From: Candidatus Izemoplasmatales bacterium
GTDB lineage: Bacteria; Bacillota_I; Bacilli_A; Izemoplasmatales; Hujiaoplasmataceae
Length of the DNA: 28,434 nucleotides
Assembly (NCBI GenBank): GCA_050177605.1
Contig: JBFXGX010000013.1
Location: 16,248 to 44,681 of the forward strand
Direction: 5' to 3'
Numbering within the stretch: position 1 is the stretch's first letter; every line of letters starts with the position of its first letter. A program made the position numbers. This document shows, piece after piece, positions 11,901 to 20,900 of the stretch.

Positions 11901-14900
11901 TAGCTTCTTCCCAAATGTTCTCAGAGATTTGTGCTAATTTTTGGTAAGCAACATAATCTTCTTCTGGGATTTTAACAACCTTATCGATATTCTTTTTTGC
12001 TTTTTCGATTTCTCTTTTTAATAGCGGATCGAGTGATTCTTTTTGTTCAAATAGCTGATTCACTACTGAAACTGTGTGTTCGCCTGTTTGAAGGCGGAAG
12101 GATTCCGCGCTCAGAATTCCCATCATTTCAGCTCTTCTTGGGAAAGAACCTTTAGGTGCTTCTGTCGCACTATCCCATCCCACAAGACTCATAACATAGT
12201 TATAAGCTTTTATTTTTTTTACGATTTCTCTAAATTCTTTGACTAATTCCAATTTCATCACCTCAAGCATTATTATATCATCATTCATTACTTTAATGGA
12301 TTTTTATCTCTCCAGAAAGTGATTTTTGGCTGATAATTCTTATTGATTTTGTCTTATCTTCGTTGCGAATTGAAATATCTCCACTGACAGATTGTAGTCT
12401 AATTGCTTCTGGATAAAATTCTTTAGCACTCATATCTCCACTAACTGTTTGGAAATGACATTCCCTGCATTTCATCGTATTGACACTTAAGTCTCCACTG
12501 ACGGTATTAAACACGACATCTCCTTCAATATCAACATGATTGAATTTAACATCGCCGTTCACATTGGATAAACGAAGGTCATTCGATTCAAAGTTTGTGA
12601 TTTTAAGATCACCATTTACATTGTCAAATTTGAAACTTTTCGTTTTCATATTGGTGAAGACTAAATCGCCGTTCGTGCTTTTTAAAACAAAGCTATCACA
12701 TTTTAAATTATCAACGGTAATATCAGAATTCACTGAATGTAATGAAGTTAGTAAAATCGAAACATCTGGTACTTTGATTAAAAACTCAAATTCGTTATGA
12801 CTGAAAAAGAATAGGCTCGATCTGATTTGTTTTTTTGATTTAGCATAAAATGTTTGTCCATTCAGTCCAAACTCATAGTCTTCTAGTTTTCCTTTTCCTT
12901 TATAGTAAACTTCAATGTCGTTTGTCTCTGATTTTTCTAGATGATAATCTTCATTCACAAAGTGAATATCTATATTCATTTCAGAATCTAGAACATGAAA
13001 AGATTTGAATAATGTATATTCCTTTGAATTAACAGTGTTTTTTGTTTCAAGTTTTGCAAGATCACTTAAATCGTCCGCAATTTTAGAAGGACGACCAAAT
13101 TTGGTTTCGATTTCTTCTTCACTCAATCCTTCTGCGATTGCTTCATCAATCATTTCTTGATGATCGCTTAATATCTCAGTAATATCCTCTTTAGATAAAC
13201 CTTTACTTTGTAATTCTTTCTCTAGTTCTTCTAAGAACTTCTTCATTTTTCTTTCCCCCTTTATTTAGGATTTGATAGACGCCCCCGATAAATTCATCCC
13301 ATTCATCACGTAGGGTTGTATAGTAATCGAGTCCTTTTTTTGTCATTTGATAGTATTTTCGCGGTGCACCGATGCTTGATTCTTCTAAGTAAGTTGTAAA
13401 ATAGCCGTCTTGAGTGAGTCTTCGAAGAATTGGATAAATCGTATTTTCATTTACATCTAGATATTTTGAGATGTTATTGATAATGACATATCCATATAAG
13501 TCTTCTTCTAATAGTTCAGACAAGACACAAAGTTCAATAATTCCACGCTTAAATTGTGAGTTCATTCTATCCCTCCTCGAACCCATTATAACACAGTACT
13601 GTGTGGTACACAATACCATTTTTAAAGAAATTTAAAAGGAAATCTCTTGATTTCCTTAACTTTTATTGAGCGATATTGATTTTTAAATTAACAAAATACT
13701 TTCGTGGTTCTATCAAGAATGTTCGTAAGGTAACTAATTAATACGCCATAGTTAACCATTGGTATATTCAAATCATTCGCTACTTCAATTCTAGATTTCA
13801 TTGTTTTTCGATTTAACATACAACTTCCGCAGTGAATAATTAAGTCATATCCTTGAATCACAGAAGGAAAATCTGCGCCAAGACAAAAATCAATTTGTGG
13901 TTTAAATCCAAGTTTTTGTTCAAGAAGACGAGGGATTTTGATTTGTCCAATATCTTCATGTGATATGTTATGAGAACAACTTTCTACAACCAGAATTTTA
14001 GAGGATGGTGTTAGTTTATCTACAAAGCGCGCACCTTGAAGCAATGTGTTGAAGTCCCCTTTGTACCTTGCGAAAAGCATTGAAAAAGATGTTAACGGAA
14101 TATTATCGGGAACAATTTGATTTACATAATGAAATGCCTGAGAGTCTGTGATTACAATCGCTACATTTTTTGTGATTTGAAGCGCATGTTCTAGTTCTGT
14201 TTCGCGAATCACTAACGCTTGAATTCCATAATCAAGTAAATCTCGAATCACTTGAACTTGAGGAAGAATCATTCTTCCTTTTGGTGCCTCAGAATCAATT
14301 GGACAAACAAGAATTGCGACATCTCCATATTTTAATTGATCCCCAATGATGGATGGCTCTTTAACTTCACCTAATTGTTTAATCAATGTGGATCTTAATT
14401 TCTCGATATCCCTATTCTTAGCACTGACGAAGATGGCTTTTGGATATTTATGAATCAAACTTTCTAACTCTTCTTCACTCACTTGATCACTTTTATTAAA
14501 TACGAGAATGGATGGAATACTTCTTCTTTTTAGCTTCAACTCTAAATTTTCTATGAAAAGATCATCGATATTGTTACTATCTACAACAAGAAGTGCTAAA
14601 TCCGTTTGCATCATCACATGTTCCGATTTCTTGACTCTCATCGAACCTAGTTCTCCAACATCATCCAGTCCTGCTGTATCGATAAAAATCACTGGCCCGA
14701 AAGGAATCAATTCCATTCTTTTTTTGACAGGATCTGTCGTTGTTCCCATCGTATCATGAACCAAAGAAACTTCTTGATTCGCCAGTGCATTCAGCAAGCT
14801 ACTCTTCCCAACGTTTCTTTTCCCAAAAATAGTAATATGTGGTATTAACGCTGTTGGTTGTTTATTCATATAAATCTTTTTGTCCTTCCTTGATTTTTAA

Positions 14901-17900: not shown

Positions 17901-20900
17901 TTCATCAGATAAAATAACCATTGGAAAATCTAAAGAGGAACTAGCTAGGTTCCTAAATATCCCCCGACCTTCACTTTCAAGAGAACTTCTCTTGATGAAA
18001 CAAGAAGGGATTATCGACTATGATCGCTCTTACATCTACCTTCTCGCACCTCCATTTTGTAATATTATTAAAAATGATTAAAAATAATTACTAGAAATAT
18101 AAAAGGAAATCGATCGATTTCCTTTTTTTCTACCATGATTTATCTCTTAATAAATAATCTCTGATTGTTTGTTTTTTCATTCGATAGATTGTGCCTAAAT
18201 AAATTAGACTAATGAAAGTAATCATAAGTGCGAATCCAATAACAATCATCCATAGAAACATTGAAATACTAGTAATTAAGTTGATTTGATAGGTAGCTTC
18301 AATGAGATAAGTTATTCCAAAACGGCCCAAAAATTCAATCGGTAACGCTAGTAAAAAAGCGAAAAATCCAAGTTCAAAAAGTTCAATAAGAAGTAATTCT
18401 GATATCTTCTTGTTCGACAGCCCTAAGGTAAGTAATACGCCAGAACTTTTCGAAAACTGACTAAGAAATTTATTCACTGACAGATATAAAATCATGACGA
18501 GTGCAATGCCGATTTGTATTTCCATAATCAAGATAAGACTGTTTAGTATAACTAACATGGAAGCAATATCGCCCATTTGAGTAATCACTGATTCAGCAAA
18601 ATAGATAAAAGAGTATCGGTTAGATAATCCAGAGAATTGTTCAAGCGATAAATACTCGGTAAGAATATACTGATTTACGGGTTCAAACTCTTCGCTATGT
18701 GTAATATAAAAACGATTGGTCATTCCCATATATATTGTAGGATTAAACATATAGTAGTCTATTTTATGCCCAGACAAAGCATAATACTCCGATTTAATGA
18801 TTCCAGAAACAATAAAGGAATCAAGGATTATGGCTTGATGATTGGTTCTACTGGCAATTGTTAATGATTTTCCGATAATATCCGGTGAAAGTCCGAACGA
18901 CTCAAGCATAGGTTCTGAAACTAATATCTCATTGTCGTTCGTTGGAAAACTTCCGATGATTAAATCTTGGCTGGAAAGTTCCATTACGTCATTATTGTTC
19001 AATAAATCATTTGACTGTCCAGCAACAATAGAAAAACTAGTTGACTGATTGGACTCGTAATATATTCCATCGACAGAAATGCTTAGCAAATCTGAAGATA
19101 AATAGTCTAATGATATACCATAAAGTCTCTCTGTTATGGATGCTGGATCAAAATACATAAACGTTTTCTCTTGATACACTACTTTCTCATCTTTAAAATC
19201 AATCTCATCATTTGATAGAATGTAGTTGGATGAATAATAGTCATTCAGTAAACTTATTTGTTTCTCTCTTAAAGATATACTGAATGAAATGGTCAATGTA
19301 ACCAGAACCATAATAATAGTGAAAATAAAAGAAAAAGCAAAACAAACCTTTTTATTGGAGGAAAGATTTCTAATGGATAAAATCAAAACTGATTTCATAA
19401 TGCTCCCCCTTACCTTTTTACCTTTTTCACACTAATGAAAAATGATAAACTTGAGATAAACAATAATACAATTGTGATGAGTAAAAAATTGTTCAATTGT
19501 ATAGAAGAACTAAAACTCATATTAAACAAATCACTCGCTAGTGAAATAATCTTGTCTTGAATCATCATTGACATGAAAAAAGCAATGGAACTAGCGATCA
19601 ATGTCATTCCAACAAAGATGAAGAAATATCCAAGCATTATTGTTTTCTCTTGAAAGCCAAGAATGTTTAGAAGCTTGGTATATTGTTCTCTTTGGATCAT
19701 AATAATGGAAGAAACAGCGTAGAAACAAAGAGCAATCGAAACTCCAATAACAATTGTGGTCACTAACAAAAACGAATCAGTAATGCTAACATTCCGAAAA
19801 TACACTTGGATATCGCTTGGAACATCAACAACATAACCCAATTTAGATAAGTTTAAGGACAATTGATATCCTTGATAGACAGAATCGGTTACGATTGTTA
19901 TTGTATCGATGTCATCAAGTGGTCCTAATGTAATATAAAAATATGCTGCAAATTCCGAACTATCAAACAATTGTGAAGTTCTATCATATATTCCTACCAC
20001 CAAAAAGTCTTGATGATTGATTGTTATTGTATCACCTATATTTGCCCCCAATTGTAATGCAATATATTGACTTAACGCAATTTCATAATAATTCATTGGC
20101 CAATCACCAGAAAACAAAGAGTTGTTGTATTCATTCAGCAACTGACACTCAGGGTCAGGAATAATTTTTCCGTTGTAAAATGAGATAATCGTGTAATCTC
20201 CAAGATGCTGAGTTGAAACAGTTGAAAAAATTTTATCGTTAAAAATAAGTTCCGCTTCTTCGGTATAGTAACGTCCACTACCAACAAGACTCATATCTAT
20301 AGAAAGATATGGTGAGATTGTCTCAAAATCAATATCATCAACACCTAGTGTAATTCCGTCTTCTCTTTCCTCTATTTGTGAGATGAAATTATAAAATAAA
20401 TCTTGTTTAATTGATAAAAAGCTAAATAGCGTAGAACAAAACAATGTGATAGTGATACCAAAAAGAAAAATTGTACGGTACAAAACTCTCCATTCTTTAT
20501 CGATTAACCACAGTATTTTCTTCATCTTTCACTACCTTCCCATCAGATAACGTAATGACTCTATCTGCGATTTTAGTCGTTTCTTCATCATGGGTAACTA
20601 ATACAATGGTTTTACCTAAGGTATGCAAATAGGTCAATAAATCAAGAACGATTTTTGCGTTGGTTTTATCGAGATTGCCTGTCGGCTCATCAGCAAGAAT
20701 AATCGATGGATTATTGATGATTGCTCTCGCAATAGTAACCCTTTGTTGCTCTCCTCCAGATAACTTTTTTGCTTTTACATCCTTTTTGTTTAATAAATCA
20801 ACGATTTTTAATACATCAAGAATTTCTTCGAGGTTCTCTTTGCCAAACAATCCACTGATAATCAGTGGAACTTCAATGTTTTCATAAACAGTATATTCGC

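Follow-up and report, generated by a model that had tools for sequence, protein, structure and literature searches.

Among bacterial genomes that carry [FeFe]-hydrogenase (HydA), the distribution of the HydE, HydG and HydF maturases is complementary to that of a hydA-linked ABC importer. This complementarity, which the genome-wide survey's note had left as an overlap, is our main result. The explanation that we favour, and to which we give somewhat better than even chances on comparative sequence grounds, is that the importer takes up a finished diiron precursor of the H-cluster, so that its carriers would be cofactor scavengers and the lineage studied here would have regained synthesis. The starting point was a window of 28,434 nt from a Candidatus Izemoplasmatales genome, which contains one of the rare maturase operons.

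A bounded maturase module in the window

The hydE-hydG-hydF operon reported by the survey is intact, and its three products exceed the corresponding NCBIfam cut-offs (Table 1). HydF contains the GTPase motifs, the CxH...HCxxC motif and the dimer and tetramer domains; HydG presents CX3CX2C together with the C-terminal auxiliary CX2CX22C, and HydE the radical-SAM CX3CX2C. The Crp-type regulator placed by the survey next to the maturases was found at that site, divergent from hydE.

Table 1. Features of the maturase module and its borders (window positions)
Feature	Position	Strand	Evidence or remark
Left terminator hairpin, stem AAGGAAATC/GATTTCCTT, after hydF	13634..13657		left cassette border
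hydF, H-cluster maturation GTPase/scaffold, 393 aa	13688..14869	-	TIGR03918, 493.9 bits (cut-off 325.55); PF18128, PF18133
hydG, radical-SAM maturase, 456 aa	14862..16232	-	TIGR03955, 574.4 bits (cut-off 312.15)
hydE, radical-SAM maturase, 368 aa	16236..17342	-	TIGR03956, 485.4 bits (cut-off 254.6)
-10 hexamer TATAAT, putative hydE-hydG-hydF promoter	17372..17377	-	22 bp from operator
Palindromic operator GTAAC-ATAC-GTTAC	17400..17413		putative binding site of the Crp-type regulator
Crp-family regulator, 217 aa	17428..18081	+	PF00027, PF13545
Right terminator hairpin, second copy of the left stem	18101..18126		right cassette border

The terminator stem at the two borders occurs at only two sites genome-wide (4 counts over both strands). 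A contig of a related genome with an empty site departs from the window at 13644 and rejoins it at 18130, and the 4.5-kb module made up of the regulator and the maturases is thus missing in one close relative. Trees of HydG (a quick IQ-TREE run that left out G074, G144, G249 and one Coriobacteriales row) and of HydF both placed the window protein outside the clade of the sister family f2, unlike the HydE tree (FastTree), in which the window genome grouped with family f5. By the HydG tree and the empty site, descent of the cassette from the f2 copy is not supported. In codon use, GC3 and tetranucleotides the cassette is typical of the genome, and composition thus gave no signal of a recent foreign origin. 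Two metagenomic HydG proteins are 81% and 84% identical to that of the window; beyond these the best match reaches 60%, followed by clostridial proteins at 57-59%, and a donor of hydG was not found. We infer a gain of the module by this lineage rather than a loss elsewhere; alternatively, the relative may have lost it by recombination between the two hairpins.

Maturases, HydA and the importer across genomes

HydG was missing in all 70 family relatives, as the survey had stated, including the 28 family genomes that are at least 90% complete and the closed ones. HydE above the cut-off was equally missing in the 70; four weak HydE matches lay far below it and were dismissed, and a HydF match in G070 turned out to be the GTPase Der. 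The six single-contig relatives all lack HydF, HydG and HydE, and the closed genome G028 lacks HydA as well. In the sister family, HydG is present in 30 of 77 genomes, at the low identity to the window protein that had been described (49.6-53.3% for 28 of the 30; 41% for the G074 copy).

Two claims of the survey had to be changed. The window genome is not the only one of its family with a maturase gene: G014 (70% complete) carries a full hydF (573.9 bits) directly upstream of a family-type hydC-hydB-hydA and after a cut-off aspA, inside which the contig stops. In f2 operons aspA sits between hydG and hydF. It is unlikely that this contig strayed in from the sister family, because its hydC, hydB and hydA best match family f1 (66-77%, whereas the f2 loci retrieved reach about 60% at most). 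The idea of a maturase-less family thus stands in that the family is almost wholly so and keeps an intact HydA under selection, with the hydF of G014 as the exception. As a trait of one family it is too narrow, since the condition extends through the class and is met again in Actinomycetota. Scoring of 300 genomes sampled from the class (190 with HydA, 110 without) showed that 160 of the 190 HydA-bearing genomes have no HydG.

HydA itself was detected (PF02906) in 62 of the 70 relatives, which widens the survey's sample of ten. G006, G007 and G068 carry orthologues that share 74.6-80.5% identity with the window genome's copy and contain the three H-cluster motifs; by these motifs and by TIGR02512/NF040763 scores above the cut-off, the relatives' HydA is a group A [FeFe]-hydrogenase. 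Comparison of five pairs of maturase-less genomes gave hydA dN/dS values of 0.02-0.09, indicative of purifying selection, and HydA of these genomes is probably active in vivo.

The importer consists of a lipoprotein of the SsuA/PqqT fold, with a conserved Cys20 behind a hydrophobic leader, and an adjoining TauC/SsuC-type permease (PF00528). In the window genome the binding protein is encoded at C14:16346-17284. A structure model of the binding protein (pLDDT 92) gave SsuA-type matches and placed PqqT and thiamine-precursor binding proteins among its predicted fold neighbours. An ATPase gene is present in the importer loci of G240, Vescimonas, Collinsella, Haliovirga and Acetoanaerobium. Against scavenging, none was seen in the Izemoplasmatales importer loci examined; a clear orthologue of the importer ATPase was not found in the window genome, where the best match was 34%.

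In the class sample, 142 of 145 importer carriers have HydA, and 107 of 110 HydA-less genomes have no importer; in the family the latter holds for seven of eight, closed G028 among them. These co-occurrence counts indicate that the importer needs HydA. Among HydA-bearing genomes, the importer was found in 132/160 without HydG whereas it was found in 10/30 with HydG, and the contrast recurs in the order (97/106 versus 5/30), in family f2 (29/36 versus 4/29) and in genus g20 (3/3 versus 1/10), although Fisher values overstate it because kin genomes are not independent. In g13 the contrast depends on G074, and the contig that carries its hydG is 4 kb long and has an odd gene context. A trend for reduced genomes to import more may also confound the complementarity. 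In a second phylum, Coriobacteriales genomes picked before the outcome was known showed the importer in 5/6 with HydA and no HydG and in 3/10 with HydG, while those with neither protein gave a strong match in 0/4 and one weak one. Five Collinsella genomes have HydA and the importer without HydG or HydF; the importer loci recovered by the named-genome scan were nearly all from Collinsella, with Clostridia, Bacteroidota and Spirochaetota falling outside the profiled set. Overall, the importer's distribution is complementary to the maturases and dependent on HydA, as for a cofactor-salvage importer.

Two of the counts go against scavenging. At E<=1e-15, 28 of the 160 genomes with HydA and without HydG have no importer, among them all 10 of family f9, 4 of f5 and 10 of f10, the f10 matches being close to the threshold. 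In addition, one third of the HydG-bearing genomes, the window genome included, retain it.

Genomic context links the importer to hydrogenase. In 52 of 63 family genomes no more than 6 kb separate it from hydA, and the closed genome G226 has hydE-hydG-aspA-hydF-SBP-permease in a single run. In Collinsella the importer stands behind hydA, and in Vescimonas behind a TM1266-type hydrogenase gene. Distant homologues in Azospirillum are found alongside a TonB receptor and nnrS, a context from which we conclude, against scavenging, that the distant homologues serve other ends.

A shared type of regulator and a putative operator

As the survey had noted, a regulator of the same kind stands opposite the hydA-linked importer in relatives and opposite hydE in the window. 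The window protein is 61% identical to its G014 counterpart and 25-38% identical to its matches in other relatives. The operator has a single match within the window, and by itself this is at chance level (one mismatch allowed, seen in 37 of 100 shuffles); a sigma-70 promoter scan of the window was likewise at chance level. A variant, GTAAC-ATAT-GTTAC, is kept between crp and the importer in 21 of 27 relatives' loci, and the window's spacing between operator and -10 hexamer recurs in 20 of the 21 operator-bearing importer promoters. The geometry would fit class II activation, with the palindrome ~41.5 bp upstream of a predicted start site, an assignment based on the Crp domains and on the 22 bp between operator core and -10 hexamer. 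The regulator, which we take to resemble HcpR/CooA-type Crp regulators by family label and motif likeness, would be a probable activator of the supply genes.

A proposed choice between making and importing the diiron cofactor

Gene identities, distributions, operon links, operator geometry, hydA selection and the empty site were observed directly. On the reading that we prefer, the diiron subsite of the H-cluster would be either made by HydE, HydG and HydF or taken in by the dedicated ABC importer. Because hydA is kept, maturases are lost and an uptake transporter is present, the cofactor may be scavenged from neighbours. HydG is missing from most genomes with the importer, and so, in those checked for them, are HydE and HydF; what is imported should therefore be a complete [2Fe] precursor with its bridge in place, presumably set free by maturase-bearing neighbours. 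Apo-HydA takes up the [2Fe] precursor unaided. Control of the supply genes would fall to the Crp-type activator, which would occupy GTAAC-N4-GTTAC as a class II site; this switch may drive the importer in relatives and hydE-hydG-hydF in the window genome. According to the accessible text of PMC6243476, a synthetic [2Fe] complex enters cells and activates apo-HydA without maturases, and its authors suggest transporters.

An unknown maturation route inside cells, with the importer bringing only a raw part (an Fe-CO-CN synthon, a thiol or chelated iron), would yield the same distribution and regulation, and we regard it as unlikely. Family f9, which keeps HydA with neither maturases nor importer, favours such a route, and the available text of PMC11216029 proposes an alternative pathway for archaea and some eukaryotes; maturase-less eukaryotes are reported there to make active enzyme, which points to some route besides the importer and counts against scavenging. 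Against it, the hydA and importer loci examined contain no other conserved enzyme gene, and HydF is missing too. HydF is required to complete the bridge of the [2Fe] precursor.

Quite unlikely, in our judgement, is that the importer carries some nutrient that fermenters forming H2 need in general (a sulfur anion, or the precursor of a vitamin or a quinone), and that common descent and a broad loss of biosynthetic capacity explain its anti-correlation with HydG. Sulfonates, thiamine precursors and PQQ are all ligands of this fold family, the binding protein has weak PF02621/NMT1 matches, some copies lie far from hydA (11/63 family genomes and several other loci) and HydG-bearing genomes retain the importer as counted above. 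However, in many families the importer disappears along with HydA, in each of three lineages it is linked to a different hydrogenase-related gene, and it has its operator in common with hydEGF; a general nutrient would also leave the cofactor source of 160 genomes unexplained.

We give little credence to an orphan HydA that works without its diiron site, as an iron-sulfur electron relay or a structural HydABC subunit, and hence without cofactor supply. The importer-linked orthologue group has TSCSPGW in motif 1, and, according to Supplementary Note 1 of PMC12578642, pure cultures of Olsenella umbonata yield no detectable H2 although two [FeFe] genes are transcribed. However, TSCSPGW is also found in the maturase-bearing window genome, several paralogues in relatives keep all three motifs, many of them with the canonical TSCCP, and pure-culture silence is equally predicted by scavenging; the strong selection on hydA also argues against this explanation, which leaves the importer link unexplained. 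Scarcely credible, finally, is that incomplete genomes or over-divergent maturases give a false impression of absence, or that the cassette is mis-assembled: many relatives are fragmentary MAGs and G014 shows that a contig end can cut a maturase operon, but closed and near-complete genomes largely refute this, the profile models score in controls and catch even paralogues, the composition is that of the genome, and one unitig, from a run that may be the window's own source, covers 13551-24693 at even depth.

Beyond the window lineage, the diiron subsite could be a shared good of anaerobic communities. A widespread and previously unrecognised importer family would then allow bacteria from two or more phyla to run [FeFe]-hydrogenases on their neighbours' cofactor, among them many Coriobacteriales and, in the present class of Bacilli relatives without cell walls, the majority of the [FeFe]-hydrogenase carriers sampled; we consider this evenly poised. 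If true, H2 output of many gut, digester and sediment bacteria would depend on neighbours; pure cultures would fail to reveal it, and hydA alone would not be enough to infer it. It would also mean that active enzyme can arise in nature without maturases, which would answer the puzzle of orphan hydrogenases for bacteria. Activation of [FeFe]-hydrogenase without HydEFG is a published open question for archaea and protists, for which the importer offers a named candidate gene pair, cheaply testable because the synthetic cofactor is a standard reagent; it could also serve whole-cell hydrogenase activation at low cofactor levels. Even with a wrong cargo, the class-wide lack of maturases beside a selected hydA stands, and the window genome is rare in having genes for making the cofactor, here under a putative switch of the type found at the importer.

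A literature search, covering few subscription papers, returned no paper describing the importer or cofactor scavenging and no natural importer of an organometallic Fe-CO-CN cluster. The accessible parts of PMC10434189 and PMC11129491 contain nothing on either, the word stem "scaveng" is absent from the available text of PMC11216029, and bioRxiv 2020.01.21.914887, in its accessible part, notes hydrogenases in gut lineages but not maturases.

The closest known parallel is that of archaea, Giardia and Entamoeba, in which, according to the same text of PMC11216029 (Greening et al. 2024), intact HydA occurs without HydEFG, closed genomes included; only 5 of 130 archaeal genomes have the full maturase set. 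Here, the phenomenon concerns bacteria, reaches class scale and comes with a candidate mechanism, whereas that work proposes an unknown alternative pathway. Among PDB sequences the binding-protein profile matched one alone (E 5.8e-32), BDI_1369 of Parabacteroides distasonis (PDB 3hn0), which is also the top predicted fold match; it bears the label "nitrate transport protein", and our literature search found no demonstration of its function. With PqqT, thiamine-precursor binding proteins and the SsuA/TauA anion importers the system shares the binding-protein fold and the TauC/SsuC-type permease, but sequence identity is 12-18% and the proposed cargo would be an organometallic Fe-CO-CN cluster. 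The logic of making or importing is that of vitamin salvage. The regulator has in common with HcpR/CooA-type Crp regulators the cNMP-binding and Crp HTH domains and a palindrome in putative class II position, while its candidate targets are hydrogenase cofactor supply genes. Compared with other HydE/HydF/HydG maturation operons (TIGR03956, TIGR03918, TIGR03955), the window trio are ordinary full members in the class-wide order E-G-F, but are set in a bounded module together with a Crp-type regulator, and their host family is otherwise without them.

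The hydEFG cassette and its relatives

The hydE, hydG, hydF and Crp-family genes of the window are ordinary genes. A single unitig of sequencing run X1, which may be the window's source, spans 13551-24693 without a break at even depth (35.7 versus 38.7 on the flank), and the codon use, GC3 and tetranucleotide content of the cassette are normal for this genome (G000). Thus, the cassette is real and part of G000. Source records assign close homologues of the genome's importer protein to Candidatus Izemoplasmatales, which puts G000 in this order of free-living wall-less anaerobes. 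The genome carries three full PF02906 genes and a fourth hydA broken off at the start of contig C4. One cluster (C21:15842-23670, L092) comprises Rex-like and alcohol dehydrogenase-like genes, a PAS-containing sensory hydrogenase, a phosphatase and a group B hydrogenase, and such clusters are also present in several maturase-less relatives. The stretch adjoining the cassette (18130-23214, 28-33% GC) looks variable and contains MacB/FtsX-type ABC genes, two small lipoproteins and an XRE-type regulator.

Features of the maturase cassette (window coordinates) and of the G000 importer
Feature	Coordinates	Strand or orientation	Remarks
hydF	13688-14869	minus	above NCBIfam cut-off; expected cysteine and GTPase motifs
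hydG	14862-16232	minus	above NCBIfam cut-off; expected cysteine motifs
hydE	16236-17342	minus	above NCBIfam cut-off; expected cysteine motifs
Crp-family gene	17428-18081	divergent from hydE	
Importer binding protein and permease	C14:16346-18065		

A single contig from a single run (X3; 767 bases, depth 4.84) matches the window at 13249-13644 and again at 18130-18481, the two blocks being 19 letters apart, and represents a relative that lacks hydF-hydG-hydE-crp. Where the window has two copies of one stem, flanking the cassette, this contig has a single terminator hairpin. Regain by transfer into part of the genus is likelier, though the relative may instead have lost the module through recombination of the two hairpins. 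In a quick tree, the window HydG clusters with two metagenomic proteins (81% and 84%) outside a 28-sequence sister-family clade (support 100); members of other families of the class join these three in a clade with support 99. No donor of the cassette was found.

The genome-wide survey's note had held that G000 alone in its family has HydEFG, the relatives keeping an intact HydA without maturases. Among the 70 relatives, 62 have HydA and none has HydG or a HydE above cut-off, so that the observation on the family was nearly right, though understated; the headline was wrong by at least one genome, as HydF lies above cut-off in one relative (G014, 70% complete). There, hydF stands immediately before hydC-hydB-hydA on a contig that breaks off within the 3′ part of aspA, the sister-family order being hydE-hydG-aspA-hydF. 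Because this HydF resembles the sister family's (73-79% identity to six of nine proteins, 58-63% to the other three) and is 46% identical to that of the window, yet the hydrogenase genes are of the window family's type (f1), G014 is a second case in the family, separate from the window's. Its contigs C96 (L074) and C86 (L075) hold the maturase genes of sister-family type, joined to the hydC-hydB-hydA operon, and a Crp protein (61% to the window's) that begins at a contig edge. In many operons a PF00206 aspartate ammonia-lyase-type gene lies between hydG and hydF (L205, L342, L343, L345, L347, L191, L335), possibly as ammonia donor for the bridge.

HydA without maturases

Since all three H-cluster motifs are kept in the relatives' HydA wherever that stretch is complete, and hydA dN/dS is 0.019-0.092 in five pairs from maturase-less genomes, these genes are not decaying. 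No [NiFe] large subunit was found in three closed relatives tested. HydG is missing from 106 of the 136 HydA-bearing genomes of the order. It is also missing from 160 of 190 in an evenly drawn class sample of mostly high-quality genomes, and HydF was found in none of five HydA-positive, HydG-negative genomes of that sample tested. Of 201 Coriobacteriales genomes sampled, 18 had a HydG above cut-off. Some members of the order both possess and express hydEFG (PMC8397711). Maturase loss reaches far beyond the window's family.

An importer that follows HydA where HydG is missing

The main result is the distribution of an importer composed of a binding protein and a TauC-type permease. In the class sample (300 scored genomes, G295 left out), 142 of 145 carriers have HydA; the other three are one genome with withheld bases, one at 85% completeness and one weak match. 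Among HydA-bearing genomes, the importer is present in 132 of 160 without HydG versus 10 of 30 with it across the class, in 97 of 106 versus 5 of 30 in the order, and in 29 of 36 versus 4 of 29 in the sister family f2; in genus g20 it is present in all three genomes without HydG. These counts stand without significance values, to which we give no weight because related genomes are not independent. Two observations count against the link: the importer occurs in 8 of 21 genomes of the order lacking both HydA and HydG, mostly fragmentary, and in 28 HydA-bearing genomes of the class neither HydG nor importer was found (10 in f9, 10 in f10, 4 in f5, 4 others). Families f9 (G229, G241, G262, G292, G334, G364, G376, G382, G394, G406) and f5 (G174, G202, G214, G238) may use a third route to the cofactor or have a cofactor-free HydA.

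In G000 a 312-aa lipoprotein and the permease lie directly behind hydA. The lipoprotein model (pLDDT 92) best matches the fold of the uncharacterised BDI_1369, then SsuA and PqqT, and its family comprises 1205 clusters at E<=1e-30. No ATPase gene was found beside the pair in the Izemoplasmatales loci examined; in f1 loci a P-type ATPase, a 178-aa unknown protein and an MFS transporter often come next. The importer lies <=6 kb from a hydA match in 52 of 63 family genomes, counting one importer copy per genome and group A-type matches only. In Vescimonas it lies behind a TM1266-type hydrogenase gene, and in the closed genome G226 it closes a hydE-hydG-aspA-hydF run, an arrangement suggestive of an ancestor that had both routes, with reciprocal loss afterwards. 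In denitrifier-type Proteobacteria (among them L215, an Azospirillum plasmid), proteins distantly related to the binding protein are encoded with a TonB-dependent receptor and nnrS and probably carry another cargo. The importer of L216 (NZ_CP128848.1), labelled a Streptomyces plasmid, groups with clostridial-type proteins, and the record gives the impression of being mislabelled; P0121 (611 aa, two binding-protein matches) is possibly a tandem fusion.

Coriobacteriales, an independent lineage, were analysed with a single-protein importer query; of the 18 genomes with HydG, 10 were included, together with 10 HydG-less ones picked by size alone from 20 listed. Five of the six HydA-positive, HydG-negative genomes gave an importer match, as did 3 of 10 with HydG; the four lacking both gave no strong match (one at 1e-10). 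In Collinsella, the binding protein and then a permease-plus-ATPase gene directly follow hydA, and five genomes tested have HydA without HydG or HydF. Two Collinsella genomes tested gave [NiFe]-type large-subunit matches, and such hydrogenases could be the source of their H2.

In 21 of 27 loci with a Crp gene divergent from the importer we found GTAAC-N4-GTTAC with <=1 mismatch; the remaining six either have a different palindrome or were scanned in a wrongly placed search window. A TATAAT-like hexamer starts exactly 22 bp from the palindrome, on the importer side, in 20 of the 21. Toward hydE, the spacing in the window is identical; this arrangement corresponds to the class II activator geometry of Crp-family promoters. 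Because palindrome and spacing are common to importer loci and hydE, the same kind of switch would control import in the relatives and synthesis in G000. In G000 itself the importer stands behind hydA unaccompanied by this regulator, and elsewhere in the genome the exact palindrome has only two further occurrences. Family f10 has a different palindrome, TGTGAT-N4-ATCACA, in the crp-importer interval (L200:7783-7844, L201:8893-8946). A paralogous Crp clade has the inverted GTTAC-N4-GTAAC (L056, L060, L061, L062, L067, L068), and at three such loci the regulator faces a membrane protein of ∼190-200 aa with unassigned function.

Supply of the diiron cofactor

A strongly supported genomic link ties this unstudied importer to the supply of [FeFe]-hydrogenase cofactor. 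HydG builds an iron synthon, HydE joins two and bridging follows on HydF, and the apo-enzyme spontaneously takes up the synthetic complex (PMC12933642). With all three steps missing, a cell would require the finished diiron complex, which the anion-/cofactor-binding fold of the importer would suit. We lean, on genomic grounds, towards an importer that takes up the finished diiron precursor. The main gaps in this import reading are the Izemoplasmatales loci without an ATPase gene and family f9 without the importer. An unknown internal maturation route, fed by the importer, would share the same distribution and seems rather unlikely. A general nutrient as cargo is doubtful. That HydA works cofactor-free, for which f9 and f5 are candidates, is improbable given intact motifs, and an artefact is hardly credible.

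We found no description of natural cofactor uptake or of an importer of this kind in the open-licence literature. The synthetic complex also enters Synechocystis cells, and the authors remark that transporters may be implied, since the complex is anionic (PMC6243476). Olsenella umbonata has transcripts of group B (494 TPM) and A2 (95 TPM) genes and gives no detectable H2 in pure culture (Welsh et al. 2025, PMC12578642), a silence that fits scavenging only if the organism lacks HydEFG. Archaea and some protists likewise have HydA without maturases, and an unknown alternative pathway has been proposed for them (PMC11216029).
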